A DNA stretch of 64,000 nt from a bacterium (GTDB lineage Bacteria; UBA10199; JADFYH01). Below, in pieces: positions 3,465-55,557 of the stretch. Both the position numbers and the translations under genes were made by a program. Position 1 is the stretch's first letter. Every line of letters begins with the position of its first letter. Below the pieces are notes generated by a model, which searched no databases, had not been told where the DNA came from, and saw only the letters and a list, made by a program, of their open reading frames with translations. The DNA lies in assembly GCA_046346885.1 (NCBI GenBank), contig JAXMHI010000001.1:291390-355389 (forward strand). Reading direction: 5' to 3'.

Positions 3465-5045
3465 TTATGGGTGTTGGTCCTGATTCTCCTGGCCTTGCTC
3501 TTCTTGGGAAGAGTGCTGCTGGTGGGAGGAAGAGTTCTGGTTTTGAGAGTTTCCGGAAGAGTTCCCATTGGAATGGGAGTCATTGGGGTTGTCCGAATGG
3601 CTCTCGGCGGCGCTCGTAATGGCGGAAGTGGCCGTATGCTGGGCCAACTGCGAGAGGGAAGCCGTTGCAAAAGCGCCGCCCATCGTACCGAAGCTTAAGG
3701 CCGCGGTACCGACGCCCGCTTGCAAGGAGGCCGCCGCGAGGAGGAAAGGCGAAACGCTCAAGATTGCGTCCCCATAAACAGCGGGAATCCCTAAGGCCGT
3801 CATGGCCCGCGAAAAGGCGTGTTGCAAGGGAGCGGGAAGGGGAATCCCGCCCTGCAAAGGAAGAACGGTCAGCGTTTCACGGAAAAAACCTTCAGGAAAC
3901 GATTCGATGAAACTGCGGATCGTTTCTCCCCGCTCCGAGCTCAAGGAGGCTCCGTCATGGGCATTCGACGGGCCGTCCGCCGTCGGCTCCGCCCCGGAAG
4001 ACGAATTGGAAGAGGTCACCCCGTTTTGGTTCGGAGGGTTCATTTGGAAAATCGGAAGTAGGTAAGGGGGATATCCCGAAGACGAAGAAGCGGACGGCGG
4101 TAAAAACAGAAGCGATTCTTGAATCGGAAGCAAACCCGGAAGGGACGCCATCTGAGGGGAAATCAAGCGGGCCGCTTCGTAAGGGATCGCCGCTAGGGGG
4201 TTTAAAAGTTCCGCACCTTGAATGGCCGACCGAAGAGCCACTTGGGCGAGGGCCGATGCCGTCACCGGGGAATTCGTCGTTAAATTATTTCCCGAAGCTG
4301 GGGACGGTGCGCCTCCCGAAGGGATCGGTGCGGATGCTGCGCCTCCTGCCGCGGCGCCGGAAGCCATGGCCCGGACAATTTGGGCTTGCACGTCTGCGTT
4401 CGCATTTTGTCCCGCTTGGGTGAGTAAGTCGCGGTTTTGAGAATCGCTCGCGAGCGCGACGATCAAACCCTGACGGATCGCTTGATCCGAGGAGTTTTGA
4501 TCGGGTTGCGAAAGGTAATAATTCAAGCTTAAGGCCAAGGCTTGGCGGTGGATCTCTTGGCGCGGGGCCACTCGCACGGCTACTGCGTGAATTACCGCAT
4601 CGAGGCGGGTGTTAAGAAAGCTTTGGTTGAAGAACGGATTGTTTTCGACTTCCTCGCGCGAAGGTAGATTCCCTTGGCTTAATTCCTGGGCTAACTCACG
4701 GGCTTGGGAGGGGACGATTTCGCCGTTTCGCTCCATTTCCTCCACTACCGATTGTAAGGTGGAGCCCAAGGTGACCGCGGCCCGGCGGTCGCTTAAGTTT
4801 GTCGCGGGACGTGCCGAAAATACATGAGTCGGGCTGCGGGTTAAGGAAATCGGGCGGGCGTATGAACGCTGAGCGACCGGGTCTTCGACGTATTCGACGT
4901 CGGCCGTACGCGAAATGACGACAACTTGGGATTCATCGGTAGAAGATAAAGCGGGCGGGTTTTCGGAGGAGCAAACGGGGGCTTCCAGGTAATCTTCCGC
5001 CCGTGAGACGAGATCTTGATTTTCAAGCTTTTGCGGACCCGACAT
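3465..5045 (-). CDS. Hypothetical protein, 526 aa, Ser/Pro/Ala-rich with S/N/Q/E-rich tail
   Basis: Long ORF with GAGGGG RBS; no signal peptide; low-complexity linkers and tail. Confidence 0.75.
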   Translation of the reverse strand: MSGPQKLENQDLVSRAEDYLEAPVCSSENPPALSSTDESQVVVISRTADVEYVEDPVAQRSYARPISLTRSPTHVFSARPATNLSDRRAAVTLGSTLQSVVEEMERNGEIVPSQARELAQELSQGNLPSREEVENNPFFNQSFLNTRLDAVIHAVAVRVAPRQEIHRQALALSLNYYLSQPDQNSSDQAIRQGLIVALASDSQNRDLLTQAGQNANADVQAQIVRAMASGAAAGGAASAPIPSGGAPSPASGNNLTTNSPVTASALAQVALRSAIQGAELLNPLAAIPYEAARLISPQMASLPGLLPIQESLLFLPPSASSSSGYPPYLLPIFQMNPPNQNGVTSSNSSSGAEPTADGPSNAHDGASLSSERGETIRSFIESFPEGFFRETLTVLPLQGGIPLPAPLQHAFSRAMTALGIPAVYGDAILSVSPFLLAAASLQAGVGTAALSFGTMGGAFATASLSQLAQHTATSAITSAAESHSDNPNDSHSNGNSSGNSQNQNSSSHQQHSSQEEQGQENQDQHP

Positions 5046-5144: not shown

Positions 5145-8100
5145 TTATCGGGGTGGCTCCTCCGAAGAACCATTTTCCGCTGTCGTCGCATTTTGGGAGG
5201 GGGCTTCGGCCCTTGCGATCTGCTCTAACATGTCCACAATTCCTCGAAATTGCGAGATATTTTGTAAGATCTGGTTTCTGGCGGCGGTGTGCTCGTTCAG
5301 CAAGGTTCGCAGACCTTGCGACAAGGAGGAAAGCGCCTCTTGCGGGTTTTGAAGCATCTGGATGGCGGCGGTGCGAAGGAGGTTCGTCAGGGCCACTTCC
5401 GATTCTACCCTCGAGCGGATGCGAACGTAGGCCCGGGTGAGCGCCTGGAGATTGGCCATCGACCCTTGTTCCACCGCCCTTCGCGCCTCGACGACGCGGG
5501 GATCTTCGTTTACCTGTCGGCATTCGAAGGCAACGAGACGTTGAATTTCTGCCACTTCCCGTTGGTCCGTTTCCGAAGTTTCATCGGTCGACCAAGTAAG
5601 GCGGCTTCGCGCCGCCACTACCCTGGGGTCTTGATCGGGGTTTTCTAGGGTCTGAACGATTTGCAGGTAGAAAGCGCGGGTGGCGATTTCCCTTTCCCGG
5701 ATCACCGTACCGAAAAGTTGGTCGGCGGGAACCACCGCCCGGATCGACCCGACCCGCTGGGCCCGGTCGGTGCTGTGGGTTTTGTTGAAGGTGACCGCGC
5801 GCCTTCCGACGACGGTCGAATAGATGCCGGGGCGATCTCCTATTAATTCGTTCTGGACGTTCCCGATTGCGATCGTCAGCTGTTTTTCCAAGGCCTCACG
5901 GTTTTGGTCGTTCGCTCCTTCCAAGGCCCGGCGGGCTTGTTGGACACGGGGATCGTTCTCAATATTGGCTTGAATGGCTTCCACTTCGTCCCGCACGTCG
6001 CTGCGCTCGACGATGTTGGCGTTTAGGTCACCGCCGACCACTTGCACCTTCGTGCCCGTCACGGCGACGATGCGGTGCTGCTCGATGGCTTCCACCTGGC
6101 GGATTTGTTGGCTGACCACCACCATGGAGCCGCCCACCAGGTTCCCCAAGTTGACGAGCACGATGGGGCCACGGTGCAAGGTCATGGACCGGGCGATCTG
6201 GGCGCCGCCGTCGGAGAGTTGTCGCATGAGCATCGAAAGGGGGTCCGCGTTGAATCCGGAGAAACTGCCCAAAACAAGGACGGGCATTCGGCCGTCCGCC
6301 TTCCGCAGGGCTTGTGCGAAAATTCGCGAATCCGTGGGGGTCAAGGGTCCGATCGGCGGGGCGATAACCAAAGTGGGTACGCCGTTGATTTGTTCTTCCA
6401 CGACTCGGATGCTGGGTTGCTGGCTGGCGACTCCGCTGGCCCGCTTTTCATCCCCGTTCACCGTGGGCCATCTGTCTCGAGTGATGCCCTTGAAGAGATC
6501 GGTCAGATGTCTCCAGAAAGGCAGCGCAGGCGGCGATTCGGGATCGCGAAACGCCTCGATAATCGCGTCGATGTCACCTTTTCCGCCGTTCACGATCGTT
6601 CGAATTTCGTCGCCGACGGTGCGGCCTTTCTGGGTCTCTATCGATAAAATGTCTCGCTCCGAGGTGTTCTCCGCTCCGATGGGGCGGGGCGTGACGAATT
6701 GCCCCCGGGAGGTGTAGCTGTAATAATGGTGCAAATTCAACATATCCAAGGCTTCTTGGAGGTTCTTAGCGCGCAAGATTCCTTCCCCATTCAACCCATG
6801 GATCTCGTCGTAACCGGCGAGAGAAAGAGGGCCGTTGGGGTACCATTGCCGGGACCGGAGGGGGATATCGAGGAAGTGCAACTTGCTTAAGATGGCGACG
6901 GTTTGGGCGTCAGGACCCGTGAGCGGGGTAGAGCCCCGATCGGTGTAGATGTTGATGCCGCCCGTATCCATGATCATATTGGCGAGCGCGATCCAGTAGG
7001 CCATGCCGCCGATGTTGACGTTGTCGATGATTGTGTTGATGCGGACGCCGTGCGTATGGGCGTTGAGGATGATCTCGCGGGCCGTCGAGGCGATGGCGTC
7101 CAGGTTTTCGGAGCCCGTTTCCAGCGCGATCTTTGCGCCGTAAGAGGAAGCGACCCAGTCGATGTCGATGCCTTCCCGTCGCGCGAGTTTGATCGCCGCG
7201 TTGACGCGGCCGCATTCCTCGGCTGATAAAGAGCCCCGGTTGGCGCCTAAATCTCCCACGATCACCACTCGTCGTGCTTTTTCCCCGTTGAAAAGGTTCG
7301 ACTCGCCGATTCCGATCATCACCGCCGCCCGGTTGCCTCCGGCGGGGCGCGAGACGGGTTTTAACCGGGCCTGGTTGTAATCCAATTGTCCGGATTGATC
7401 TTTCCTCATCGAGGCGGGATCCAAGTCGTATTCCACGAAGGTCGTCGGGTCGTAAGAATCGATCGGCGGAGGGATCGTGGAAACGGAAGGCCTTTCCCCA
7501 TTTACTTCCTTCGGACTGGAAGAGGAGGAGGGAGGAGCGATATTAAAACGTTCCCTAAACCGAGTCGCCACGTCCCTCAATATTTCGGGGATCCGGTAAG
7601 CCCAGGTGCCGAAGCGGCTGAGGGCCTTGAGCTCCTTGCGCTCGACCGGCGTGGCGGTGCGGATCGGGATATCCGCGGGAGACCATTGGTTCGGCTCGAA
7701 GACCGTTTCGTTGTTCTCCACCCATCGGTCGTATTGACCATTTTTCAAAAGCACGTCGCGTTCCGCCACGGGCCCGTTCGCCGCTTCGCGGACTTGGGCG
7801 CGCACCACGTTGTCCAGAGTCGCCACGTAACGGTAGGTGGTCGGATTGGTGATGCGGACCAGCACGGTTCGATAGCCTTCATCGCGGCTTAGGTCCCGCA
7901 ATCGGGCCTTCACCACCACTTTTTCAAGGCCCAGTCCCAAGAGACGGTCGTGGTGCCGGACGGCCAGTTGTTCCGCATAATGGACGGCTTCCGCGTCGGT
8001 GACGTCGAGGATCGGTTGGATATTGAGGAACATCCGGTTCCAGCTGGGACGGTCTTTCTTGTCCCGCGCTTTCAATGAGCGCCCCATCGATTCGGCCAGG

Positions 8101-11100
8101 TTTAAAAATCCTTGCTCTACTTCCGGGATCTCGAGGGTCCCGTTGCGGTCCACTTGGGCCAATGGAACGAGCGCGTTTCCGAAAAGGCGGAAATCTCGAA
8201 GCTCTCTTTCCACCTTGCTTCTCGTGTCGTCTAAAGTCCTTTGGGCCTTCGACCGTTGCGCGTCGTTGGAAGTTTCGACCGCTTCCCGCGCCTTCACGAC
8301 GGACGGGTGCTTTTCGACTTGCGCCCGCAAGGCGGGAGTGACTCTTTCACGACCGTAATAAAGGTGGGAGAAACGGTTTGAGTTTTCCAGGTCGTGTTCG
8401 ATGTCGAAATTGTTCATCCTCCGCATTTCGATCAGATGGGCGAGCATGGGATGCAAGTCGCGGAAGCGGGTATCTTCGACGAAAGGCCCGGTGCGCTGGT
8501 TTTCGGCGTCGGGGGCCCGACGGAAGGTGAAATAATGGGGATAGTCACCCGGTTGGTCCACGATAAAGGTGACCCGCTTCAAATTGATCCCGTGATCGTT
8601 CCCCCTCAGGGCGATTTCGAGTGAAAGCCGCATGAATTCCGAATAGGCCGAGTCGGTGCTGAAATCTTCTTCTTCGACTGCCCCCCGGCTTTTTACGAGC
8701 TCGGCCATCAAGCGGGCGATGCGGTTTACGGTGGATCGCTCTCCTTCCTCCGTTTCCCGTTGCATCCGGCGCAATTGAGCCATCGCTTGGGCGAGATCTT
8801 CCGAGGAAGGGCGCCGGACGATTAATTGAATGACGTTATCCCGCGTTTCGGGCCCGCCTTCCTGCAAGCGGCGCAATTGGGCCACCGCTTCGCATAAGGT
8901 CCCCAAATAATCCGTGGGGGAAGAAGCGTTGGAACGGATCATGCGCCGGTCGAAACTCTCCCCGTTCTCCCGAGTCTCCGTGAAATGAGCCGCCGAAGGG
9001 GGAGGGTCTTGCGCATCCGTGGCTTGGCGAAGTTTGGCGGTTTGGGAAGGGATCGGATCTAAAACGGCGTATTGCCCCAATTCATGCCGACGGCTGAAGC
9101 CTTCGATTTCTCGTGTCGCCATCATCTCGCCCAACAAGGCTCTCTCACCGGGGTGGGGGTTGTCGCGAATCAAATCCAACAAGCGGGCCACCATCGACAC
9201 CGGCGTCGAGCCGATTTCTTCTACCGCCCGTTGCCGGATGGGGTTGTCGAGCGGCAGCCCGCTCAAATTGCGAAAGATGCGAAGAATCTGCTCCCGCGAG
9301 CGTTTCTGGATATGCTCGGGCGATTGTCGTCCCGTCAGTTCATAGAGCGCCAAAATTTGTTGGGCCGGGCTTTCCATTGCCTGGTCGGGCGAGACGGAAA
9401 GGAGGATGTCTCCCTGCCGGTCACGGATCTCCACGGCCGTTTGGGATCGGGTAGGGGTCAGTTTCACATTGAGGAAGGTCACGAGCCGGGAGGCGCCGAC
9501 CGGCGGTTTCTCTCCTTCCCCGGAAGTTCTGGGAGAACTGAAAAGGTCCATTTCGTTGCCGTCTTTTGAACGCTGAAAGTAAGGGTCTCCCGACTTGAGC
9601 GACGTTAAGCCTTCCAAACTGCCGTTTCGAAGGGCGAATACGCGAGTTTTTTCGATGACGTCCCCTGACGCGGAAAACGCCATGTCATAGGCTAAGGGAG
9701 TTTCACGGGCACTCTGTTTCTCGATGGGAGATCCCGTCTCGCGGGTGGAAATGAGCGCCTGATGTTGGAGGAAAATCCTCCGGGGGCGATTGTTTTCGAA
9801 AAGCACCACTTGCCGGAGATCGCCGTTGGCGTCGGACTGGGCCCAAACGCTTCGATTATTGGCGGAAGGGGCCTGTTGCTTCGCTTCTTCCCCTTGCTCT
9901 TCGCCGTAACCCAACGAACTTCGTGCGTCGGGGTTTTGTCTGAAAAATTCCGCGAGAGGGCCTTGCAGGCGTAGGCCCTCCTCCGACTCTTGCCCTTGAA
10001 GCAAGCGGCTTAAGGCGTCTTGAATCGCTTGGGCCCTTTCCCGTTCGAAGGCCTCGCGTCCTCCCACTTCGAGATAAATGGGCACGCCTTCGGGGCCGGA
10101 AAAAACCGTCGGAGCCCGGTAGGGGAAACGGCTTAAGTCTTCCCCTCCCAACTGGTTCCATTGTTTCACGGTATTGTTGTCGTAGTTAGCGTGGAGAGCC
10201 GCCTGCGTTTTCACCAAGCGGCGATTTTGTTCCAAGTCGGTCTTGAGCCCCACTCCGCCTTCGATTCGAGTCCGGTCGAGCACTTCCCCCATGCGCTGCA
10301 TGGCTTCCCTGCGGGTGGCTCCGGTGACGAGGATCTTCGCGAATAAGGCGTTCGTATTGGGGTTGGGCGTGTCGCCTTCGATATAGGTCGGTTCGATGAA
10401 GATCCCCTGCGACGCGAGGCTTTCGAAGTCGGTGGTCCCCATCACGGTGAATTTGGTGATGAGCGCCGCGCCGGGGACGGTGATGCGCACTTCCACCGCC
10501 GCCCCTTGAAGGGTGACGTCGCTTTGGTGGATCGAGAGAGGGAGACCTCGGGAGATGCGCACTTGCTCATGGATAATGTCCACGCCCGAAACGAGCTCGG
10601 TTACCCGGTGTTCCACTTGGATGCGCGCATTGACTTCCAGTGCGTAGAAGGTGCCCGTATCCGGGTTCACCATAAATTCCACCGTACCGTGGCCGGTGTA
10701 GTTCACCGATTGGGCGGCCTTGATTGCCGCGTCCTGCATTTTTTCGCGCAATCCGGGGATCCGATTGAAGACCTCGGCGGGATGGATCTCGACGAGCTTC
10801 GCCCCTTCCCGTTGGAGGGTGCATTCGCGCTCGCCTAAGTGGATTACGTTTCCGAAACGGTCGGCTAAGATTTGGAATTCCACATGGTGAAATCTTGGAA
10901 CGTATTCCTCGGCCAGGATGGCGGGATTCCCGAATGCTTTCAAGGCCTGCTGGGAAAGCGTCCCGAATCGGGCGCGGGCTTCGGCCGCGTTCTGTACGGT
11001 CGCCTGCCCCATACCGCTGCCGCCTTCTTCCGCTTTCAGGCGGATCGGGTAGCGTAGCCCTTGCTCTTCGATGGCGTCCATCAAGCGGTCGACGTCGGTG

Positions 11101-18968: not shown

Positions 18969-20549
18969 TCAGACGAACTTTTCGTCGATGAATTTGCGAA
19001 GCGCTTGAAGCTCCAACGGCACGCCGTATTTTTCCAGTTTATCATAGAGATTTCTCCGCGAGATGCCTAAGGCCCGGGCGGTATTTCCCTTGTGGTAACC
19101 CTGATCTCGCAGGGTGAGCAGGAGGCGTTCCATGTCGGGGTCCATTGTCTCGCGGGCGAGGGTTTTGCTAGTAGCCGTTTTGATCCCCTTCTTTTTTCCG
19201 AAGAGCACGGGCTTGAATTGCAGCGATTTGGTGTTGAGGGTGTCGTTCTCCACAAAAAGAACGGCCGTCTCCAAGGTGTTTTGCAGTTCGCGGATGTTTC
19301 CCGGCCAGGGATAATCCATGAAGACTCGAAGCACGTCGCTGTGCACGCGGATCATTTCCCTCTTTTCCCTCTCTGAAATCTTTTTCAAGAAATACTCGGT
19401 AAGTAAGGGAATATCTTCTTTTCTTTCCCTCAACGGGGGCAGCGGAACGGTGATGCCGTTCAAGCGAAAAAAGAGGTCTTCCCTGAATTTTTCTTCCTCC
19501 ACCCAGGCCTGCAGATCCTTGTTGGAGGCCGAGACGACGCGGACGTCCACCTTGATCACTTCGTTGGAGCCGATGGGACGGATTTCCCCTTCCTGAAGAA
19601 ACCGCAGCAGCTTGGCTTGCAGGTTGAGGCTCATGTCGGCGATCTCGTCTAAAAAGATCGTCCCCTTGTGGGCGTATTCCAAGATCCCCTTCTTGTCCCG
19701 GTCCGCGTGGGTGAAAGCTCCCTTCTTATGGCCGAAAAGCTCCGACTCTAGGAGCGTTTCTGGCAGCGCCGAACAATTTTCCGTCACGAAGGGGAATTTG
19801 GCGCGGGAGCTGTTGAAATGGAGGGCGCGGGCGATGGATTCCTTGCCCGTGCCCGATTCTCCGTAGATCCAAACGGGCACTTTCGATTCGGTGATCTTGT
19901 CGACGAGCGAGAGCACCTGAAGCATTCGGGGCGATCGCCCGACGATCTCGCTGTATTCGTGCTTGAGTTTCAAACGGTTTTCCGCCACTTCCCGTTCCAT
20001 TTGCTTGAGTTGGCCGGTTTGAGCTTCCACTTCCCGCGAGAGAGCTTCGATCATCTTCGCTTTCTGGAGGGCCAGTGCCGCCAGGTCGGAGAATGTTTTC
20101 AAGGCGGTCAAGGTTTCCGGGTCGATCAAGCCGCTCTCCAGAGGCTGGTCTAAGTAAAAGACGCCCATCACTTCATCTTTTCCAATCACCGGTAGAGCCA
20201 GTATCGATTTGAGTTGGTGGAGCTGCACGCTCTTCGCGTCGCGAAAGCGTGGATCGGCGAGGGCATTGTCGGTTAAGACCGCCTCTCCTTTCTCCATTGC
20301 CTCGCGGATGGCGGATAGGCTGATCTTGAATTCTTCCGATTCGAGGGCTTCTTTCGAGAAGTTTCGGGCGACGGACACGCTGAAACCGGGAAGCGCGCCG
20401 CCCTCTTCCGCGCTTTTTAAGACGAGGAAACCGTTTTGGGCATGGGCGAGTTCCAAGGCCGTGTCCATCAACCGATTCAAGACGCGTTCCATATCTTCTT
20501 CGTAAAGAAGTTCGCGGTTGAGCGATGAGAGGCGCTCGAGGATGTTCAT
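18969..20549 (-). CDS. GAF-sigma54 AAA+ transcriptional activator with Fis HTH
   Basis: GAF domain, GESGTGKE, GAFTHA, WPGNIRELQN, LGISRRNLYDKL. Confidence 0.92.
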   Translation of the reverse strand: MNILERLSSLNRELLYEEDMERVLNRLMDTALELAHAQNGFLVLKSAEEGGALPGFSVSVARNFSKEALESEEFKISLSAIREAMEKGEAVLTDNALADPRFRDAKSVQLHQLKSILALPVIGKDEVMGVFYLDQPLESGLIDPETLTALKTFSDLAALALQKAKMIEALSREVEAQTGQLKQMEREVAENRLKLKHEYSEIVGRSPRMLQVLSLVDKITESKVPVWIYGESGTGKESIARALHFNSSRAKFPFVTENCSALPETLLESELFGHKKGAFTHADRDKKGILEYAHKGTIFLDEIADMSLNLQAKLLRFLQEGEIRPIGSNEVIKVDVRVVSASNKDLQAWVEEEKFREDLFFRLNGITVPLPPLRERKEDIPLLTEYFLKKISEREKREMIRVHSDVLRVFMDYPWPGNIRELQNTLETAVLFVENDTLNTKSLQFKPVLFGKKKGIKTATSKTLARETMDPDMERLLLTLRDQGYHKGNTARALGISRRNLYDKLEKYGVPLELQALRKFIDEKFV

Positions 20550-20562
20550 GTTCCCTCCGTAT

Positions 20563-23500
20563 TTATTTTTTTAAAAACCATTTGCGGTAATCCGCCCGAT
20601 CTTCGAAGGAGACCTTCAAGGAGACGGGCAATTTTTCGTAAAAGCGTTTCAAGATTTCCGTAATCGCCTTCTCGTCTTTCGCTTCGCGCGCCAAGAATCG
20701 GAGAGCCAATTCTTGGTTCCAGAAACCGAAAAGGGGATCCGGGGGACGCGCGTCTTGCAGGGGGGCGTATTTTCCTTCTTTGAGTTCTAAAAGAAAATTT
20801 TCCGCTTCCCGTGCGGAAGGGGAAGGAGATTCCCCTTCCGCTTCGGCCAATTTTTGGAGATGTTCGCGGGCCGTCGAAAATTGGCCGACGGCCGTTTGGG
20901 CCATCGCCAGTTGGGCGAGGTTTTGAGCGAGATCCCCGGGGCTGCCCAAGGCGCGGAAGATTTCGTAGGCGCGGCTTAAATTTTGGAGGGCTTGCTCGAG
21001 ATTTCCGCGGCGCCGGTAAAGGACTCCGAGATTGTTCCAGACGGTAGCGAGATTGAGTTCGTCATCGTTCGTTTGGGCCAGCCGCACGGCTTCGCGGTAA
21101 GCGCATTCAGCGCCGTCCGCGTCCCCCTTTTCCATGCGGAGGTTTCCCTCTTGAAGGAGGGTGGCGAATTCTCCGGAGTAAGAACCGGACTTACGGTAAA
21201 GGTCTTTCGCCTCATTAAGTGAGCTTTCTACTTCTTCCCATTTTCCTTCCTCCGCCCAAACGGCGCTTAAGTTCCGGAGAAGCTCCGCTCGGCGGGGATC
21301 GTCGTCGCCCGCGAGCTTTAGCCCCGCCGATATATGCTCCTTCGACTTCTCCAGCCGACCGGCGCGGAGCTCGTGCATGCCCAAGAGAGAATGCGTATGA
21401 ATGAAATACGGAAGCGCTTCTGTTTCGGAAAGTTTTTTCCCAAGCTCCATTCCCTTCAAGAAACGTTTCGCGGCCTCTTCGTGCCGCCCCATGTTCTGGA
21501 GAATTCTCCCCGTAACGATCCAGTATTTAAGTTGCTTGATCTCGACGCTTTCGTCGGGTGCTCCTAAAGCAATGATTTCGTCACAGGCCCTTAAGGCTTC
21601 TTCGAAGCGCCCCAGCTCGTTTAAGAGATTGGCTTTTACCCTCAGCAGGCGGGAATTCTCGGAGGGGTCGTAAATCAGCTCGAGACTTTTTTGGATAAGG
21701 TCTAACGCTTCCAGCGTTTCCCCCTTTTCCCGTAATGTCTCCGTGACGCGTCTCGCCCAGAGGGCGACCGAATTTGCGTCCCGCAGGCTCAAGGCGTGAT
21801 GAAGTTTTTGCTCTTCGTGCCCTTCCCGGTTTTCGAGCGCGAGTTTCCATCGGTTGTGAAGTTCCATTTGTTCTTCCAGGGGGACGCCCTGTAGGAGCGT
21901 TGTTTCCAGGCCTGAAGTCGCCAAGCGGAATTCGCCGGTTTCCTTTTCGAAGAGAAGAAGTCTGCGGTTCGTCAACGCATCGAGGGAAGATTTTAAGGAT
22001 TCGCCGGAAGCGGAGGCCTTGCCCGCCGCTTCCTCCAATAGATTGAACCCCGCCGGAAAATGGGCAACCGCGAGGAGAAGGAGGAGGCGTTTTTCCTCCG
22101 GTGAGATCGATTGGAGACGCTCGAGCAACAGATCCTCGAAAGAATGCAGATGGCTAATGCGTTGAATCCATTCCTTTGAGAGGTGTTTTTTTCGGGTAAG
22201 CTGCATTTCTTGAAAGGCGTGGACCATTTCCAAGAGCATGCGGGGGTTACCTTGAGTTTGTCGCCAAAGCTCTTCTTTGCCGACGGAGGCCGCTTCTGTT
22301 CCGAGTGCCGCTTCCAAGAAGGAGAAGGTTTGTTCCCGGTTTAAATTTTGAAGGCGGATTTCTTCATCGCCCGGTTTTTGGGAGAGGTTTTGTAATAGTC
22401 GTCTTTTATCCTCGTTCAAACCGTCGTCGTTCCATTCGAAAACGGCAAGAAGATTGCGGGGGGATAGGTCGGGACGGAGGAGGAGGGCCAGCTCGGAAAG
22501 AGGCAATCGGTCCAAGTCATGAAAAAAGAAGGCATGAGGTTCGGAGAAAATTTCCGAACGAAGAGATTGCCACACGGACTTGAACCATCGGGGCGAGATC
22601 TCGTGGGTTTTGATCCCCGAAAGGGCGCATTGAAAGGCGATCTCCCGGATGAAGCGCTTTTTGCCCACTCCCGTAATGCCGTGAAGAAACAGAAAGAGGG
22701 AGTGGGCGGGAAGATTTTTCAATTTTTCCCCGACCCTTTGGAAAGCTTCTTCCGCACCCCACATTCGCGCCGGGTAATATTCGGAGGGTGCCGCCTTTTT
22801 TTCGAAAGATCCTCCGGATAAGGCATCGAGGGCTTCTCTTGCTTGGCCAAAGCGGTCTTTTAAATCGGTTTCGATCATCCGGTCGATCACGCGGGAAGGA
22901 AGGTTGAAATGGGAGACAAGCGCGGGGGCTGCTTCCAAAAGCGGTTTGGCCTTCGTGCGAATCATCTCTTGCAGGCTCCGGCAATGGGCCCGCGGGTGGG
23001 AGCCGCTCAATGCTTCGTAAAAAAGGGTGCCGAGCGAAAAGAGGTCGCTTGCCGGCAAGTTCTTGCCGTACACCCGCTCCGGGGCAAGATAGGGTAGGGT
23101 GCCCGCATTGAATTTCGCGGAACCTAAAAATGAAGTGGCGAGGCCGAAGTCGAGGAGCTTGAGCCGACCTTTTCGGTCGATCAAAATATTTCGTGGGGAA
23201 AGGTCGCCATGGAGGATCGATTGGGAATGAAGAAATTGAAGCGCCTCCAGGGCTTGGCGGAACCACTCGAGGATTTCTTCCGGCGGCGATTGAACGGCGG
23301 CGGTTAAAAGGTCTTCTCCGTCCACGTATTCCATCCAAAAACAGGGACCTTTTTCTTCGCCGAAAATCATTTCGCTTTGGGTGGAATAGCCCAACACGGA
23401 GGCTATGGCGGGGTGTCGGAGTTGAGTCAGTAGTTTCGCTTCTTGCTCAAAGAGGGGAAGCTGGCTTTTTTGGGATTCGTTTAAGATTTTAACGGCGACG

Positions 23501-23595
23501 GGTTTACCATCGGGAGAAAGGGCCTTATAAACTTCCCCCATGCCTCCCTCTCCCAGGCGGCAGATCACTTTCCAAGATGGGTGATTCGGATCCAT
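20563..23595 (-). CDS. Ser/Thr kinase-P-loop ATPase-TPR protein
   Basis: LGEGGMGEVY, VAVK, HGDLSPRN, DFG, APE; GITGVGK Walker A; TPR array. Confidence 0.9.
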   Translation of the reverse strand: MDPNHPSWKVICRLGEGGMGEVYKALSPDGKPVAVKILNESQKSQLPLFEQEAKLLTQLRHPAIASVLGYSTQSEMIFGEEKGPCFWMEYVDGEDLLTAAVQSPPEEILEWFRQALEALQFLHSQSILHGDLSPRNILIDRKGRLKLLDFGLATSFLGSAKFNAGTLPYLAPERVYGKNLPASDLFSLGTLFYEALSGSHPRAHCRSLQEMIRTKAKPLLEAAPALVSHFNLPSRVIDRMIETDLKDRFGQAREALDALSGGSFEKKAAPSEYYPARMWGAEEAFQRVGEKLKNLPAHSLFLFLHGITGVGKKRFIREIAFQCALSGIKTHEISPRWFKSVWQSLRSEIFSEPHAFFFHDLDRLPLSELALLLRPDLSPRNLLAVFEWNDDGLNEDKRRLLQNLSQKPGDEEIRLQNLNREQTFSFLEAALGTEAASVGKEELWRQTQGNPRMLLEMVHAFQEMQLTRKKHLSKEWIQRISHLHSFEDLLLERLQSISPEEKRLLLLLAVAHFPAGFNLLEEAAGKASASGESLKSSLDALTNRRLLLFEKETGEFRLATSGLETTLLQGVPLEEQMELHNRWKLALENREGHEEQKLHHALSLRDANSVALWARRVTETLREKGETLEALDLIQKSLELIYDPSENSRLLRVKANLLNELGRFEEALRACDEIIALGAPDESVEIKQLKYWIVTGRILQNMGRHEEAAKRFLKGMELGKKLSETEALPYFIHTHSLLGMHELRAGRLEKSKEHISAGLKLAGDDDPRRAELLRNLSAVWAEEGKWEEVESSLNEAKDLYRKSGSYSGEFATLLQEGNLRMEKGDADGAECAYREAVRLAQTNDDELNLATVWNNLGVLYRRRGNLEQALQNLSRAYEIFRALGSPGDLAQNLAQLAMAQTAVGQFSTAREHLQKLAEAEGESPSPSAREAENFLLELKEGKYAPLQDARPPDPLFGFWNQELALRFLAREAKDEKAITEILKRFYEKLPVSLKVSFEDRADYRKWFLKK

Positions 23596-23716: not shown

Positions 23717-23733
23717 ATGGCACCCGCTTTGCT
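23717..23733 (+). promoter_or_regulatory. Sigma-54 promoter (-24/-12)
   Basis: ATGGCACCCGCTTTGCT, a near-consensus TGGCAC-N5-TTGC, about 30 nt upstream of the lipoprotein start. Confidence 0.8.
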
Positions 23734-24700: not shown

Positions 24701-24913
24701 ATGCCAATCATCAACCGGTCTCATTGCAGTGCATATCCTTCTCCCTTCGATCCTCCCTCCCACGTGATTTCGAGGGCTCCCCATTCGGGAAATCACCCTT
24801 CCTCGCCTTCTTCTTCCGCGGGAACGACGCCGTCTCCGGCTTCGACGCTTCCGCCTCCCAGTCCTTCCGCATGGCTCCCTCGGCCGGGAATCAATCAACG
24901 AAAAATCGGTTGA
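24701..24913 (+). CDS. Small Pro/Ser-rich protein, 70 aa
   Basis: GAGGT RBS 5 nt before ATG; fills the gap between the lipoprotein gene and the terminator. Confidence 0.45.
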   Translation: MPIINRSHCSAYPSPFDPPSHVISRAPHSGNHPSSPSSSAGTTPSPASTLPPPSPSAWLPRPGINQRKIG

Positions 24914-24923
24914 GAGAAAAACA

Positions 24924-24958
24924 AAAACCCCGTCCTATCGATACAAGGGCGGGGTTTT
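24924..24958. terminator. Bidirectional intrinsic terminator
   Basis: AAAACCCCGTCCT-N9-AGGGCGGGGTTTT between convergent genes. Confidence 0.8.
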
Positions 24959-24987
24959 AAAAGCGGTGGATTTTTGATCCAGTTTAA

Positions 24988-25503
24988 TTATGGAACAAAG
25001 AGAGTGCCACCGTTGTTGTAAGGAGGATAGTAGCCGGGTCCATATCCCGGACCGTAGCCATAACCGCCATAAGCACCGGGAGGGGGAACTTGACCCGGAA
25101 TCGCCGTGTTAAAAAACATTCCTCCCCGAGGGGATCTGCCGGGCGCCATGTTGTAAAAAGAAGCGCCTACTTGGGAGGGAGCCGCATAACCACCGGGAGA
25201 ACCATAACCTCCCCCATACCCGCCGCCGTACCCATAATTTGCCACGGGGGGATAGTAGTAATAGTAATAATTGGGAACCCCCACCGAAACCGAATTGGGG
25301 TAATTTTGTGGAGGAGGGGTTTGTACTAAAGGAAGAGTGGGAGATTTTTCCGTCGCGTTATATTCTACGTCTCCCGAAGGAGCCGCTTGAGAGGGACCGT
25401 AATAGGTCCTCTTCTTGGTTTTCGCCTCGGCACTTGCGGCCGAGATCAACAATGAAACCCCCATCGCCACTGCCAGTGTCACCGTCCAACCTCTGGTTCT
25501 CAT
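24988..25503 (-). CDS. Exported Gly/Tyr/Pro-rich protein
   Basis: Signal peptide ending ASAEA; GYGGGYG and PGYGPGYY low complexity; AGGAG RBS. Confidence 0.7.
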   Translation of the reverse strand: MRTRGWTVTLAVAMGVSLLISAASAEAKTKKRTYYGPSQAAPSGDVEYNATEKSPTLPLVQTPPPQNYPNSVSVGVPNYYYYYYPPVANYGYGGGYGGGYGSPGGYAAPSQVGASFYNMAPGRSPRGGMFFNTAIPGQVPPPGAYGGYGYGPGYGPGYYPPYNNGGTLFVP

Positions 25504-48269: not shown

Positions 48270-51200
48270 TTATCGTCCGTTTCCGAGGATGGAGTCGCGG
48301 TGTTCGTTGAGGAAGCGCACCGCGATTTGGGTGAGTATTCCTCCGAGCATGATCGGCGCCTCGCGTAGGCGCCTCTGATACTCGGATTGGAGCGAGGGCG
48401 GTACTCCGTCTTGATATACGAGGTGGGTGATTTTCAACAACAGCTCGTTTTCCTTTTTGCTTGCGGCGAGGGAGTGAGGGAGGTGAACGGCGCTGAGCAT
48501 CGCCTGGTCATGGTCAAGGCTCTCCAATTCCGGAAGCTGTGAGATTTCCCGGAAAACGGCCGGATCCGCTTCTTCGGGCCAAGTTCGTACGTAGGGTAGA
48601 ATTTCCGCTCGATGTTCCACGTAGAATTGGGCGATGCGGCGTTCGAGATTGTTTTCAATCCGTTTCCGGGGCGTCAAGAAATCACGTAAGAAAACGGCAC
48701 GAAGCGGCGGCGAAATTTGCGAATGAGAGAAGAGCACTTGAATTCGGCGGCTGACCCCGTCCTTGGGAAAATCAAATGTTTCCCGGGGGTAGTCGCGGGC
48801 AAATTTTTCCTGCACCGAACTGAGGACGGCTTCGACGGCATAAGTCGGAATGGATCCCACTTCCGGAAGGCTCGAAGCGTAAGGGTAGAAGTCCAGGTGA
48901 TTTAAAACGTCGTCCCGGTTTTTATCGTAATTGCGCATCATTCGGTTTCTCAACTCGGGAAGAACCCAGCCCGGATGAATTCCCATCAACAAAAAGGAGG
49001 CGGCCCGGTGGAAATCCCGTTCCATCGTCTGGTGAAGAGCGGGATGGGAACGAGAGAAAAAATATCCCATTTGAATGAAACGAAAGAGCGGAAAGGAGCT
49101 GAAAGCTTGAAGGAACATCCTCATTCGGACGTAGGAGGTTACCGGAAGGGAAGCCACGTGCAATTCCGGAGTGACGTCGAGATCGGGATTTTCCGAGAAA
49201 CGAACGCTGCGCCCTTGAGAGAAGGCCTCCAGAACCGATTCGGCCTGTTCCTGAGGAAGAATCGTTTCGTGCGAGTCCCCTTCCGGGCTTAGGTAGCGCA
49301 CCAGGAAGGTGGGATTGCCTTCGGCCGGTTGTCTGAGGAAGAGTCTAATTTTTTGCTGTCGTTCGCGAACGGAAGAAGCCGGGTAAATATCCGTTTCCCA
49401 ATACGGCGCCATCTCTTCTTCATCTTGAGTTCGAATTCTCTCGAGATTGGGAAGGTCGCTTGAGCGTGGAGCATTTCTCATGTCCCCTCGGTGATCGAGG
49501 TAGTAGCGAAGAATTTTATCCGCGAGAGCCCCTATCCTCTCTTCCACCTCCGGAGCCGACGCGTTTTCGGAAGGGGGTTCGAAGCTCCAAAGCATCTGCT
49601 CGATCGCTCGGCGGTGGCGGCTGTTCACCGTGCTTTGGAAAATGCGGTTCACCGTTTGCGCCGCGCGTTCGAGGCTTTCCAGCCGCGGGGCGACGATCGT
49701 GCCGTTGTTATCCTGGAACGCCAAGGGCCTGATCGGTTGGGAGGCGATTTCCGGAAAGGTTCCGACGATGGAGGGAAGTCCGTCGGTTTCAATCAGGCGC
49801 GAAAGAACGGCAGGGCGGTTTCTTTGGTATTCCTCCATCATGCGGTCGGTCCCCGTTTGCATCAAGTGGGGCAGGCTGACTCCCGTCATCGCGAGAGCGG
49901 TGAGTTGACGGTATTGCCTCAGCAAATCGGTGCCGAATTTGATTAAAGGCGAATCGGTCGGCAGAGGATGAAAACGCGTGGCGAGCAGGCAGCGTAATTT
50001 CAAGAGCAGGTAGCCGTTGTCTTGGGACCAAAAATCTCTAATCGTGCCTTCTTGAGAGCGTTGCGAAATTTCGAGGGCTTCCCTCAGATCCGCATCTCCG
50101 AAAAGATTGAGTTCCGGGGCTTCCAAATCGATTCGTTGGCGTTGAGACGGGGGAGATTGGGTCAAATCCAGCGCTTTCACTTCTTCCCCTTTCAAAGGGA
50201 GGGGAGGAGAATTCCGAACGTCGTCCCGGTGATTCAAATAAAATTGCCCGACCGCGTTGAAGAAGGGATCCAAATCTCCCCGCTGGATGTCATCGAAATT
50301 CTTTTCCGCTTGTTCCATCCAAAAGCGGTTCCATTCTCCCTTGAGGCGCCGACGGCTTAGGAAAGATTGGAGAGCCCTTCCCGCTTGTGCGCCTTGGAGG
50401 GCGAAATCTCCTTCCCTTACTTCCGGCAAGGCGCCGATGCGGTCCAATACGGGGAGACCCTCGAGAAATTGGGAGCGCCAGGCGTCGTAAGCCTCGAAGG
50501 CCCGGTCGGTGACCACTTCCATTTCTCCGGGCATGGTTTCCGTTTCCAACAGAAAGCCGGAGATTTTTTCGCGAAGTTCGGCGGAGAGCCCAGGCTCGTA
50601 TCGGTCCAAAAGGGCGAACAGTTGGAGAAGCGAACGCCCTTCGCTCTGCACAAACGCTCTTCTCTCCTCGGTAATTTGGGAAACCAGACCTTCTTCCGTC
50701 ACCAAGGAAAGTTCAGGATATCGTTCCAAACGGTCCGCGGGAACTGGGGCTTCCAATACGGAGGCGATGTCGAGCGGGGGGGGAGTCGTGATCGGTGCCG
50801 GGGGGCGCGAACTCAAATTTGCCGGTTTTACTGCGATCGAAATATCCGGCATGCAGTCCACTTCCGGAACGGGATCCGGAGGGGGAGGTTCCGCAGGGGA
50901 AGCGGCTTCGAGCGTATCCTCCCTTAAGGATTCGCGGGCCCTGTTTTCTTCCATCTCACGGAGCGTTTCCCGGACGTGGTTCGAGACGGGAGAGGAAAAG
51001 TCGCCGGAAAGAAGCGAAAAGAGCGTTTCAAGGTCTTCCGTCGATTGAATCAGGTCCTCGCGGGTTTTAAGGGAAGGATTCTCCTGGGAAGCGAGCGAAA
51101 GGAAATCCGCCCAGAAAGATTCGGCGTTACCCGATTCCAGGTTCAATTCGCGGCTCAGATTCAAAGCTTCTTGCAGAAGGGAGTATCGGTTTCGGAAGTG

Positions 51201-54200
51201 GGAGATGGTTTCACCGTAGAGTGCGCTCATTCCGCGGACCACGTCCTCTTGAATCGAGGCGTAGGCTTCGAACCGTTCTCTTACTTGGCCTAAAATCGTC
51301 TCTTTCAGGGCGGGCACGGCGGGTTGAAAAAGGGCCCTTCGAAATTGATTTCTAAAGATTTCGGTCATGTCCTGGGCCATCCGGAGGGGATGGTCGAGGC
51401 CGCTGCAAAAACGCTTCGCTTCGATGAAAGGAGCGACTTGCAGGCTTAATCGGTCGACCGCCGCCAGGGACAACCGCAGGGAAGGCAGGAACGACGCCAG
51501 AAAATCTCCATGCAGGCCTTCGTCCGTGGATTCGGTGATCCCCAATCTCGAAAATCGTTCCCGGGCGCGGTGAAGAGCGACGATGCTTGATTCTTCCGTG
51601 GGGATTTCGCCACGGCGGAGCGAGGGCTCCAGCTCTCTCAGTGCGGCGTAGATCCATCGGGGAGAAATGTTCGAGGAAGCGCCTCCTCGGCTTTCCACCC
51701 AACGAGAGAAAGCGGTTTCGAAAAGGGTTTCCAAGGGAGAATGGGAAAAAACTCCCGTTTCGCTTCCGGAAATCTCGTAGATCCGGAGGGGAGGTTCTCT
51801 GCGGTTGTATTCTTCGATCAGGCGGCCGAGTTCCGAACGGATGCGGTCTTTCTGCGGTGCGAGATGGGGAAAATCCGCCAGCCGGTCTTCGATGATCCGG
51901 TCCAACAGGGCTCCGTCCTCCGTAATGGCCCCTTGCCAGCGCAGGGGATGGTGCTCGCGATATCGCGTGAGATAATTGGCGAAGGTCGAATTGGAGAACC
52001 CTTCGAGGGTGAGAGGGGCGACGGAAGCGCCGTTCGTCTCCGTGGGCAACCCCATCGTCTTCATAAAAACTTTCAAACGTTCTCCCACTTCACGGGCTTG
52101 TTCGCGGCCGTGCGAGTTCTCCACATTGCGTATGACCGATTGGAAGTGGGCGTCGTCGAAACGTTGGTAAGGGTGCGGCACTTTCTCCAAGTAACCGTTC
52201 AAGGCCGCCTCCAAAGACGGGGCTAGGGCTCCGATCTGATGGGCGAGAGCGAAGTGTTGCAGGTCTTCCTGCCAGAAGAAGAGGCGTCTTTCCAATGCAG
52301 TTTGGGAAAGTTTCCCGCGGGTCACCCGGTGGAGCACCGCCTGTTCCCCGGGATGGATGAGGGGCTCCGCTTCCCCTTGCGATTCTTTCTCCAACCGTTC
52401 ATAGAGAGACATCAGCTCGCCCCATGAATGTTCAGGGTTTTCGCCCGTTCGAGGAATTTCCGAAAGGGCCCGGTCTAAGATGCGGCGATTGCTTTCCGCG
52501 TTGGCTTCTCCGGAAAGCAGGAGGTTCGACTCCCGAAGATGGGATTCAAGCAAGCGGATCGAAATCAGGTCGCGTACGACCGAGGGGGAAAGGGCTTGGG
52601 CGCGTCTCAAAAGATCGGCCGCCACCACGAAACCTTTTAGCCTGCCTGGGCTTTGGGGATCCGGCAGCCACCTCACGCCTCCGGACTGTTCCACCGTGGG
52701 CGGGACGATTTCGAAACGCAAGGGCGCGCCCTCGATGGAGAGCGTGCCTTCCGGTCGCGTATGCAGGTGAACCCTCTCGAAAATACGGAAGAGTTCGCGG
52801 TAGAATTCTTGAATTTCCCGGAGCTCTCCGGGTTTCACCACTCCGGGGCGCTGGGCCTGCTGGGAGAGGGTTTGGAAATAACGGGTGTGTTGAAACCGCA
52901 AGCGGCGCACGAAGTTCGAAAAATCGTTTAAGAGGATGGGCCCTTCGGCAAGCTCCACACAATCCCTCCCCATCACTTCAAATTCGGCGGCCTTTTGTTC
53001 CATGAGGGCCAAGCTTAAGTCTACGGTCCCGTCCAACGCCGAGGCGAAGGGCTCCCGCTCGAAACGGACGCGCCGTGTGAGATCCAAGGGGCGCAAGGTG
53101 TCCCCATGGGCTTCCAGCACGATGCGGGCGCGGGAGGGAAAGGGCGGTCGACGGTTGAGGAGATTCTCGTCGCGATCCTGCACGGTCATGGTGGCGTCGA
53201 AATAGGGTCGGTATCGGAGGAACATGAGCAGGTTCAACATTTCCTGACGTTTTTCCTCCCCGGCTTCCTCGGGCACCAGGCTCTGGCTCAATCGATCGAG
53301 CGTGTCCATCCGCATTTTGCGGATGACGCCCCGACGGTATTCGGAAACCGTCGATTCGGAGACCCCCCATTGGCGGGCGAGGTCGATGTCGTGGGCTTCC
53401 GGCGTACTCTGAAGGTAGGCGCGCAGGAGGGAGCCCAAATTGAAATGCGCATAATCGAGATCGGCCATGAGTTTGGGGAAACGGATGACGATTTCTCCGT
53501 CTTCGTTCGGCCGGAAGTGCTGCAGTTGCTCGGGTAAGGTGAGGCGGATCGCGTCGAAGGGATCCATGTAGCCCTCTCCCTGGGCATTGATGAAATGGAA
53601 GATGCCCAAGGCGTGAAGGATTTCCCCGGGCGGCGAGAGGCGTTGATGGCCGTCTTTTCGGCTGCCCCAGGTAAAGACGGTCGCTCCCGCGATGCCCAAT
53701 TCCGCCGCGTCGATGAGTCCGCGGGTGATTCCCACCCGCGTCAGGTATTGGCCCCAATTTTCGCCCGCGTTGGGAGGCGAAAAAAGACTCGCGCCTTGAA
53801 GGGGGAGGGCGTCCAGTTCGAGGGGAGCCGGGAGAAGGGAAGCCCGTTGGATCGCTTCCGGTCTCGCGTCCGCTTGCCCCAATTTTTCCCGGAAAAACCG
53901 CCCGAAGAGCGCGATGCTTTCCGTCGGATAGGGGTGCTGCGATGAGTCTTGCAAAGTGTGTTGCAGCAAAGAAAGGTCTAAAGCGGTTTCACCGAAAGGA
54001 CGGGAGAGAATTCCTTCCGTTCTCGCGTGGAGGTAGGCCGCGTAAAAGTGCATCAGGCTTAACCCCCGCTGGTACACCTGGGCCTCTTCCGACGGCGGGA
54101 GAGATAAGTTTCGGGATTCTTCTTTGAGGAAAGTTTCCCAAGCCTCGTGGGCGGGTCCTAAGAAAGCTTGAGCTTCTTCCATCGTGAGCCGCGACGGGAG

Positions 54201-55557
54201 GATTTCCGTGCGCGAGGCGGTTTCTTGGACGAATTCCCCGTTTCTTCTGCCCGGTTGATTACTTAAAAAACGAAGCAGCGCGTTGCGTTCCAAGCCGTTC
54301 GCTTTTCCACCGCCGGTGACGGATAGGGCGGCGGACGACATGTCGTAAACTTCTTGAAGAAACGGCAAGTGGGCGGGTGTGTCGCGGCCTAAGTGGGCCA
54401 GGGCCCAGCGGGCATAATGGGGGAGCAGCTGTTCAACTCGATCCCGAAGGGAGGGCGTATCGTCCAAGTGGTGTTTCCATTGCTCCCATTCGCGAGTCAG
54501 CTGCGCTTCCACCTCTGAGGTCGCTTTGGCGGAAATGGCGCCTAAGCGCTCCCTCAAAACGTCCTGATAGCTTCGGAAGGAGGAGGCCCTTGTGCGGTTT
54601 CCTGGAAGAGTTTCGCGCTGATTTCCGTTTCCGCTTTGGTTCCCTTCCATCATCAGGATGTTCGAGTTCTTCACCGTCTCCGAAACGGTTTCGGGAGTCC
54701 CCAAAAATTCCCCTCCCGCTGGCATGGCAAAGGCGAAAGAGTGAGAACCTAAATTTTCCAATCCCGATCCGCCACGCCTTCTTTCCACCGTCACCGGCAT
54801 TGCCTGAAGACTCAAGTCGAGGCCCCGCTCGAAAGCGGCCAGGCCCGGGGCGGCGGTATGGAGCAAGCTCATGCCCGCGCCCAGTTGGAGGTTGGTCACT
54901 TCCGCGTGGAGGAGCTGTTCCGCGAGAGTCCCTTCCGCATGCGGTGTCCACCCGAGGGCGCCGGTCACTTGATGGCCGCCCACCATGGCGAAATCCGAAA
55001 AGAGGTGCTGTAAAATGACGTTCTGTTCGCGCGCCGCGTAGCCCGCGCTCTTGAGCATTCCGAAAGTGACGAGGGAAGTGCTTAGTCCTTGGGCCCATCC
55101 GCCTTGCCCGCTCCATTGCCAAAGGTGCGGATTGTTCCGGTCTCCGGAGGCGGTGGCGAGCAGACGGCTCGTACCTTCGAAGGCCACGACTTCACTTCGA
55201 GACCGATGCCGTAGGAGGCGGCCTGAAGAATGGGCGCGGCCGCCCCGCGCAGGAGGCGAGCGCCAAGGTTCCCATTCTGCCGAAGCGATAGAAGAGTCCT
55301 CCGGTCGCCATGGCGGCTAGCGACCGCCAATCGGTCGACTGCGCGACGAAGCTGCTCACCATGCCGTCTACTTGGGCTTGGCTTGCGCTTAAGCTCGGCG
55401 CATTTAAACTTTGCTGGGAGAACGCGAAAGAACGCTCGCCCGGGGAGTTTCCCGAGCCGAAGCCGCCGTCGGAAGGTGTGCCCGCGGTTCCTAAATTTGT
55501 TCGCGTGGGTTCTGTCACGGAAAAACTTTCAACAAAGGGTTTCCAAGGGGGAACCAT
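48270..55557 (-). pseudogene. Frameshifted member of the N-terminal-domain family (~2429 aa if repaired), with internal XRE-like HTH and helical repeats
   Basis: Family homology runs across three frames, with 1-nt deletions near 55243 and 55196. The downstream 2305-codon frame (48270-55187) is intact. MVPP start with GGGAG RBS. Confidence 0.7.

Follow-up and report, generated by a model that had tools for sequence, protein, structure and literature searches.

Does an acetyl-CoA carboxylase that unites both of its catalytic domains in one chain need a biotin carrier in that same chain? To our knowledge, in the known biotin-dependent carboxylases with fused biotin carboxylase (BC) and carboxyltransferase (CT) domains the carrier always belongs to the same polypeptide. 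The question is raised by a gene on the reverse strand, at positions 5145 to 12668, of a 64,000-nucleotide stretch of DNA (called the window below; contig JAXMHI010000001.1 of assembly GCA_046346885.1, positions 291,390 to 355,389) from a bacterium of the UBA10199 lineage. The encoded protein (P0001) has the architecture of a single-chain acetyl-CoA carboxylase (ACC), with BC, ACC central and CT domains in this order, and conserves both catalytic centres, while the biotin carboxyl carrier protein (BCCP) domain is missing. Our best reading, to which we give about an even chance of being right, is that of an active carboxylase which would use a separately encoded carrier in trans and would pass its product to a condensing enzyme.

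The gene is a single open reading frame (ORF), in which seven parts can be distinguished from the N- to the C-terminus, namely a head, a linker, the BC, a beta-rich domain of 256 aa, the ACC central domain, the CT and a helical tail:

5145-12668, reverse strand: whole gene of the carrier-less ACC-like protein, 2,507 aa if read from the GTG at 12668, stop codon at 5145-5147
11994-12659, reverse strand: head module at the N-terminus, residues ~4-225, with a high content of Ala, Leu, Gly and Ser, without a Pfam match or a classical transmembrane segment
11520-11993, reverse strand: linker, residues ~226-383, of low complexity at its start, the final ~70 residues being a conserved pre-BC segment (ALIGRxD...LTNPN)
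10155-11519, reverse strand: BC domain, residues 384-838, all tested catalytic residues kept, nearest to free-standing AccC-type BCs
9375-10142, reverse strand: family-specific beta-rich slot domain, residues 843-1098, in the place of BT and BCCP, without a lysine conserved across the family
7563-9374, reverse strand: ACC central (non-catalytic) domain, residues 1099-1702
5661-7451, reverse strand: CT domain, residues ~1740-2336, divergent, glycine-rich motifs kept
5148-5660, reverse strand: helical tail at the C-terminus, residues 2337-2507, in which DPRV..AR is repeated three times, with the ending ..EEPPR

Translation probably starts at the ATG at 12659, eight bases after a GGAG, giving 2,504 aa, which is also the length of the copy in a public protein collection (P0003). 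Pfam places Biotin_carb_N at residues 384-496, CPSase_L_D2 at 502-712, Biotin_carb_C at 748-835 and ACC_central at 1362-1613, and a profile of the family is colinear with 21 bacterial multidomain ACCs (hhalign, residues 383-2336 versus 1-1839, probability 100, E 5e-167). Taken together, these results confirm the order BC-central-CT, as in eukaryotic ACC, which the initial annotation of this DNA had proposed from the sequence, and the motifs quoted there (WNRMFLNI, GTWAYRIPE, SSYGAKI, GGSMVVV) are all present in the protein.

The absence of the carrier was followed through motif, profile, fold and conservation. Biotin_lipoyl (PF00364) gives no Pfam match in the protein at E<=1, and a biotinylation motif of the form [AVSEC]MK[MLVI] occurs nowhere in it. 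The nearest well-described enzyme for comparison is SACE_4237 of Saccharopolyspora erythraea, an essential, biotinylated and homodimeric multidomain ACC/PCC with a housekeeping role (Livieri et al. 2019, PMC6491548); among the columns that are invariant in ACCs of this SACE type, 0/7 are kept in BT and 1/9 in BCCP. When residues 836-1360 were compared locally (hhalign) with the section of the SACE type that runs from BT through BCCP to the central domain, BT and BCCP remained unmatched and only residues 1110-1306, belonging to the central domain, aligned (48% probability). In the AlphaFold2 (AF2) model of the slot alone (residues 843-1098; pLDDT 84, pTM 0.84) a few helices accompany an extended antiparallel beta-meander, and a fold search of the PDB with this model returned no significant match, neither to a biotinyl/lipoyl domain nor to a BT barrel; in an alignment of eight sequences the slot holds no invariant lysine. 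A BCCP hidden in the slot is rejected, as profile comparison, confident AF2 model and lysine conservation are all negative, and so is a likeness seen in a global alignment ('LLQGQESEEGLRLQGPLAEFF' versus 'LESMKIEVALRAPVAGRV'), which is weak and is lost in the local profile comparison. It had been stated beforehand that an (A/V)MKM motif is missing and that unrelated sequence fills the BT/BCCP slot, and this is borne out by the motif scan and by both profile and fold comparison; a divergent BCCP fold with a biotinylated lysine, named as the finding that would overturn the idea, was looked for and did not appear. The span given for the slot, 10160-9300, was about right, except that the central domain already begins at ~9374.

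A carrier gene hidden nearby can be rejected as well. No BCCP homologue was found at E<=1 when all frames of the window and of seven related loci (L013-L019) were searched, a six-frame search with PF00364 gave no match inside the window, and the downstream ORF at 3465-5045 (526 aa) is of low complexity and has no Pfam or family match. It should be mentioned that head residues 132-143 (~12240-12275) contain an invariant Lys in the pattern G(G/A)(L/M)K(L/M)xG(W/Y)AA, which reads MLKM here and AMKM in P0009; this likeness to a biotinylation motif is probably a coincidence, because the head is common to ~80 unrelated proteins.

Both catalytic halves, on the other hand, look intact. The BC is recognised by Pfam with E values of 2e-31 (Biotin_carb_N), 2e-49 (ATP-grasp) and 2e-8 (Biotin_carb_C), and NCBIfam models of the accC type score 350-377 bits on it, under their equivalog cut-offs. 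All 14 core positions tabulated (E. coli numbering: K116, K159, E201, H209, Q233, K238, E276, E288, N290, R292, Q294, V295, E296 and R338) are conserved in the protein and in five relatives, including K238, R292, E296 and R338, which handle bicarbonate and biotin. The BC equivalents listed in the initial annotation (K238, E276, E288, N290, R292, E296, R338) are thus present, as is the change of QRRHQK to QREGAK to which it had drawn attention; this change, which turns H236, a position outside the tabulated set, into Gly, means little, since H236 is also replaced, by Asn, in most of the SACE-type ACCs sampled, which are of functional type. The BC keeps 39/60 of the columns that are invariant in the SACE type, and among family members only ~40-54% identical in this domain the catalytic residues are kept throughout. 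It is 36-37% identical to AccC-type BCs, which are its best PDB matches, and its best NCBIfam matches are likewise free-standing AccC types.

The ACC central domain matches PF08326 with E 5e-18 and keeps 18/34 of the SACE-invariant columns; a search by Foldseek with an AF2 model of residues 824-1702 (pLDDT 75) found only the ACCs of yeast, human and Chaetomium, with a best E of 2e-18. As for the CT, a six-frame search with PF01039 gives a weak match, relatives of the protein do pass this model, and the ACCs of yeast and human match the protein weakly and in colinear order across the central region and both CT subdomains. The glycine-rich oxyanion motifs of the CT are kept (SSxGAxI, NIG(A/G)xxYW, LTG, GxLxPxxS, GFNxDP, GGxxVVVS), together with 97/192 of the SACE-invariant columns. 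Of the three Pfam families suggested as a check on this gene, Biotin_lipoyl is absent and ACC_central found, in line with the initial description; Carboxyl_trans is missed in the protein at E<=1, yet judging by the weak matches above and by the hhalign alignment, which runs through it, the CT is genuinely present.

Where do these parts come from? In the CT tree the family (support 99) is sister to the bacterial SACE_4237-type ACCs, both standing apart from eukaryote-type ACCs, and BLAST with the CT finds ~30% identity to the SACE type versus 24-26% (36-38 bits) to the eukaryote type. In a mixture-model tree of the BC, the SACE-type and eukaryote-type BCs form one clade (100/96) together with that of a further, BCCP-containing ACC from the same phylum (G025, see below), and the BC of the family lies outside, beside free-standing BCs; an approximately unbiased (AU) test rejected a clade of family and SACE-type BCs (p 0.0125), this clade having been chosen after the first tree had been seen. 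Since central domain and CT are sister to the SACE type, and the BC falls outside the BC clade of single-chain ACCs, the protein is, as far as its phylogeny tells, a mosaic in which an AccC-like BC and a new beta-rich domain are set on the central-CT body of a single-chain ACC. A simple loss of BT and BCCP from an ancestor of the SACE type is disfavoured, because the BC is not of that type, and a eukaryotic origin by horizontal transfer is rejected by the trees and the BLAST scores, the protein being nested within the eukaryote-type clade in neither tree. The phylogenies of BC and CT, which had been proposed as a check against eukaryotic and bacterial multidomain carboxylases, group the CT with the latter and the BC with the free-standing AccC type, and the label 'eukaryote-like' given to the protein is therefore misleading. 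Neither would it be correct to name its nearest relatives 'LCC', as LCC differs in domain order, the CT coming first and the central domain being missing (PMC6491548).

The carrier-less form is not confined to this genome, but it is rare. When 1.84 billion representative proteins were searched with residues 840-1700, 14 clusters were obtained at E<1e-30, and the N-terminal 450 residues of this query matched family members only. A biotinyl domain was found in no family member examined; the next relatives are bacterial BC-BT-BCCP-central-CT enzymes of ~1,840 aa. Seven family loci were detected in 185,579 species genomes, all of them in metagenome-assembled genomes titled UBA10199, 'Deltaproteobacteria bacterium' or 'bacterium', and in a sample of 93 genomes of the phylum the central-domain profile matches 22/93, with 13 strong matches, which are of the carrier-less type. 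The ratio of nonsynonymous to synonymous substitution rates (dN/dS) between relatives amounts to 0.12-0.16 in the BC, 0.16-0.25 in the CT, 0.09-0.36 in the central domain and 0.27-0.40 in the slot; every domain is under purifying selection, and the BC is the most constrained overall. Two public metagenome proteins depart from the common layout: in P0008 (1,885 aa; head-slot-central-CT) the BC is cleanly missing, and P0033 (1,561 aa; head-BC-slot-central) ends at the border of central domain and CT, possibly as an incomplete sequence. As P0008 has no BC and still keeps slot, central domain and CT, it would have to depend on components in trans if it is active. A separate and unusual case, from another family of the same class, is the above-mentioned G025 protein (contig C16; locus L021, 6122-13888, reverse strand), a single-chain ACC of 2,588 aa with BC, BCCP (VMKI), central domain and CT and, fused to its C-terminus, its own biotin protein ligase (BPL_LplA_LipB and BPL_C domains), which has no head.

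Carriers that could serve in trans are encoded in the genome, whose assembly (G000) comprises 2.76 Mb in 25 contigs and is 82% complete. Of two ordinary carboxylase operons, one, on C19, encodes a CT-beta, a BC and a BCCP of 170 aa (98130-98642), the other, on C21, a CT-beta, a 261-aa ORF, a BC and a BCCP of 128 aa (24837-25223); both of these free-standing BCCPs carry EAMKM, and a third CT-beta gene lies on C13. Genome-wide, three BC and four CT modules are thus opposed to two free-standing BCCPs, and with more such modules than BCCPs, sharing of carriers is already needed. The carrier-less protein is consequently not the only carboxylase of the organism, and the case in which it would be the sole, cytosolic ACC, considered initially as an argument against the idea, does not apply. 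Free-standing BCs natively use a separate BCCP, as in the ACC of E. coli. Given a BC of this free-standing AccC kind and free EAMKM BCCPs in the same genome, a carrier in trans is the best supported of the options that had been put forward.

A candidate for the condensing enzyme emerges from the gene neighbourhood in relatives. In genus g32 (L013, L016) the ACC-like gene is followed by a conserved ORF of ~270 aa and then by a gene for a protein of 1,745-1,784 aa with the same head and two FabF-like ketosynthase (KS) domains, and such a double-KS gene is adjacent to the ACC-like gene in both g31 and g32; in L016 the ACC-like gene lies at 5675-12949 and the double-KS gene at 14040-19394. Within the phylum sample the double-KS protein occurs in 10/93 genomes, that is, in 10/13 with a carrier-less ACC-like gene and in 0/80 without one. 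No stand-alone KS of FabF/FabB size was found in ten genomes of this bacterial family (G066-G074 and G000), its KS domains being located only within giant ORFs of 1,000-6,000 aa, and two genomes of 90-98% completeness have no KS domain at all. The lineage may lack type II fatty-acid synthesis. The sole KS of the present genome belongs to a type I polyketide synthase (PKS) of 2,889 aa (G000:C12:297343-306012, forward strand) with the apparent order FAAL-ACP-KS-AT-DH-ER-KR-ACP.

According to the trans-carrier reading, the BC would carboxylate, at the expense of ATP, the biotin of a separately encoded holo-BCCP, two of which are encoded in the genome, much as in the multi-subunit bacterial ACC; the carboxylated carrier would dock on the CT, which would transfer the CO2 to an acyl-CoA, probably acetyl- or propionyl-CoA; and the product would feed the head-tagged double-KS protein that co-occurs in relatives. 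The head might place the enzyme at a site shared with other head-family proteins, whose genes would be switched on together with this one from promoters of the sigma-28 type. Several observations weigh against this reading. BT, the bridge between BC and CT in known holoenzymes, is gone, and the CT is so divergent that Pfam overlooks it. BirA (TIGR00121) was not found in the 82%-complete assembly and is present in 21/26 relatives, and the double-KS partner was not found in it either; the co-occurrence counts of this partner moreover represent only two or three independent lineages. The post hoc choice of the clade in the AU test has to be kept in mind as well, and finally, P0008 and P0033 suggest that slot and central domain, and not the catalytic pair, form the conserved core of the family.

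The head calls for consideration of the genome as a whole. Searching the genome with residues 1-380 (phmmer) gives matches in 89 ORFs, 80 of them at E<1e-20; these ~80 head-family ORFs of 600-2,600 aa each have unrelated bodies and together amount to 76.7 kaa, or 8.3% of the genome. The head can be aligned with the heads of P0004-P0009, and 'cargo', as the ACC-like body had been called, is a fair description of what follows such a module. We found no signal-peptide-like feature in it, and a role as transmembrane anchor was rejected, the top Kyte-Doolittle 19-mer reaching 1.1 versus the usual 1.6. The gene is preceded by one further feature:

12733-12759, reverse strand: promoter motif of the sigma-28 (FliA) type, GCAACTTC-N11-ACCGAACA, ~100 nt upstream of the ATG, with 8-N11-8 geometry

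For comparison, the E. coli sigma-28 consensus is TAAAGTTT-N11-GCCGATAA. Across the genome the motif takes the form GCAACTT(T/C)-N11-(A/G/C)CCGA(A/T) and is strongly enriched before head genes: the exact word GCAACTT stands upstream of 24/80 of them (~1 expected), and 19 of the 34 promoter-positioned full motifs precede head-family genes (~1 expected). The same 8-N11-8 motif is found upstream of the ACC-like genes of L013, L016, L019 and G025, and a FliA/WhiG-like sigma gene, at C12:247092-247727, is located 10 kb from the sole FlhA/SctV gene. These data support a co-regulation of the ACC-like gene with the type III cluster, not its export. A sigma-54 promoter, by which the divergent kinase/activator gene might drive the ACC-like gene, was also considered and has no match in the intergenic region of 175 nt. 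One head-family protein of 1,032 aa (G000:C10:7234-10332, forward strand) has a body that itself matches a FliA/WhiG sigma-factor model (E 3e-10).

Could the protein then be an effector, exported or injected, whose head serves as secretion or targeting module for the single type III apparatus and whose ACC-like body acts outside the cytoplasm of the producer? Such an enzyme might use the AccB of a bacterial target or, as half-enzyme or decoy, perturb its malonyl-CoA pools. The sheer size of the head family, the preference of the sigma-28-type motif for head genes, its conservation before ACC-like genes in four other genomes and the vicinity of sigma gene and FlhA/SctV gene would all be in keeping with this, and small genomes (1.9-2.6 Mb in nine relatives, 2.76 Mb at 82% here) without stand-alone FabF/FabB fit a host-dependent lifestyle. 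However, we regard this explanation as unlikely: the head shows neither a Pfam match nor a signal-peptide-like feature, a multidomain enzyme of 270 kDa is an awkward type III substrate, eukaryotic targets possess no free BCCP, co-regulation does not equal export, and a usual role in biosynthesis would account just as well for the strong purifying selection on the BC and for the linkage to a KS partner. A decoy or half-active enzyme altering lipid synthesis in a target, as suggested in the initial annotation, is not supported, what speaks for delivery being only the promoter co-regulation with the type III cluster. The effector explanation is, for the rest, compatible with the use of a carrier in trans. 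In a related scenario, which strikes us as quite improbable, the head would mark ~80 sigma-28-controlled proteins exported by, or assembled at, a flagellum-like type III apparatus, with the ACC-like protein and the double-KS protein forming a relocated unit for building lipids or polyketides. If so, this unit would be kept apart from the ordinary metabolism of the cell, acting for instance inside or at the surface of a host or prey, or at a site of the envelope reserved for it; its biotin carrier would be diffusible or supplied by the target, and the ACC-ligase fusion of G025 would be a self-sufficient version of the same idea.

The remaining alternatives concern the chemistry itself. A pseudo-carboxylase, acting as a non-catalytic scaffold or sensor in which slot and central domain organise head-family proteins or bind a nucleotide or acyl-CoA as a signal, would explain why BT and BCCP are gone, why slot and central domain persist in a variant that has lost the BC (P0008) and in one that may lack the CT (P0033), and why the CT of this copy stays under the Pfam threshold; in eukaryotic ACC the central domain is indeed a regulatory, non-catalytic hub (PMC4833862). 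Pseudoenzymes usually lose their catalytic residues, however, whereas here those of the BC are all kept across distant members, its dN/dS is the lowest overall and the oxyanion motifs of the CT are retained, and we therefore hold a non-catalytic role to be improbable. Another possibility would be a reaction of BC and CT with free biotin or some other small carboxyl acceptor, or else a CT that by itself is a biotin-independent acyl-CoA decarboxylase or transcarboxylase and primes the double-KS partner. The BC of E. coli does carboxylate free biotin, if poorly; a carrier is found neither in cis nor nearby, and the double-KS partner resembles the KS/CLF pairs, which make use of decarboxylative priming. 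But known BC and CT enzymes use free biotin very poorly, the residues that handle biotin and bicarbonate (R338, E296, K238) are conserved in the standard way and free-standing BCCPs are available in the genome, which makes carrier-free chemistry very unlikely.

Some features of the tail and the surroundings of the gene should also be recorded. The helix motif DPRV..AR..(L/V)E, present in three copies in the C-terminal tail (5148-5660, reverse strand), is found as a single copy in ACCs of the SACE type. In the ACC-like subfamily, most full-length proteins with a known C-terminus end in a Gly/Ser-rich stretch followed by ..PP; this ending was considered as a signal for the entire head family and rejected, as it is confined to the ACC-like subfamily and is not shared by other head proteins. 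Divergent from the ACC-like gene, at 12844-16578 (forward strand), lies a gene for a fusion of Ser/Thr kinase, TPR, GAF and sigma-54 activator (1,244 aa), and a second kinase-TPR protein and a GAF-sigma-54 activator are encoded at 18969-23595 (reverse strand); a perfect TGGCAC-N5-TTGC of the sigma-54 type is found at 23718. The window contains a second giant head-family gene at 48270-55557 (reverse strand) with a body of 2,305 aa, whose head is split by a frameshift: the ORF at 55192-55557 covers the head up to its middle, after which it continues out of frame to a stop, and the main ORF begins in mid-head with 'VAFEGTSRLL'. To judge from its reading frames, this could be a pseudogene, an assembly error or a case of recoding.

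Set beside known carboxylases, the protein resembles SACE_4237 in being a single chain of BC, ACC central domain and CT with sister CT clades, and it shares with that type the central-domain fold seen in yeast ACC. Unlike SACE_4237, it has a new beta-rich domain instead of BT and BCCP, a BC of AccC-like origin, an additional N-terminal head and linker of ~380 aa and a tail of ~170 aa, and it is an accessory paralogue without the usual means of biotinylation. If the proposed mechanism holds, BC and CT would act on a carrier in a separate polypeptide, as do AccC, AccB and AccA/AccD in E. coli; however, they are fused in a chain of 270 kDa through a eukaryote-type central domain, and the CT is of the single-chain ACC type and not of the AccA/AccD or PccB type. 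In the two-subunit acyl-CoA carboxylases of mycobacteria, alpha subunits are shared and carriers are common to several CTs (PMC4347857). Eukaryotic ACC (yeast 5CSL, filaments of human ACC1) has the same domain order and the same fold of the central domain, as seen above, but contains BT and BCCP, and the similarity in sequence to it is far below that to the bacterial enzymes. A carrier-less ACC has been engineered in the deltaBCCP construct of Chaetomium thermophilum ACC (PDB 5I6I), which still folds and for which no activity is claimed (PMC4833862); here, by contrast, a carrier-less form occurs in nature, is conserved and evolves under purifying selection. A phrase-based literature search brought up no report of a single-chain ACC that naturally lacks its carrier. 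New here are the mosaic origin of the BC, the fold test of the slot with its negative outcome, the inventory of trans carriers, the joint occurrence with the double-KS protein, the profile of selection and the conserved promoter of the sigma-28 type.

With a BC-central-CT enzyme that is natural and conserved but has no carrier, the rule of the carrier in the same chain is broken, and the question arises whether a free BCCP is able to serve an ACC scaffold of the eukaryote type. Its mosaic origin contributes one more case to the discussion of how ACCs of the eukaryote type came together (PMC6491548). For the organism itself, the conserved promoter of the sigma-28 type connects the enzyme with an undescribed and very large family of proteins that makes up ~8% of the genome, and the link with the double-KS protein, together with the apparent absence of stand-alone FabF/FabB, suggests that lipids or polyketides are made in an unusual manner in this uncultured phylum.

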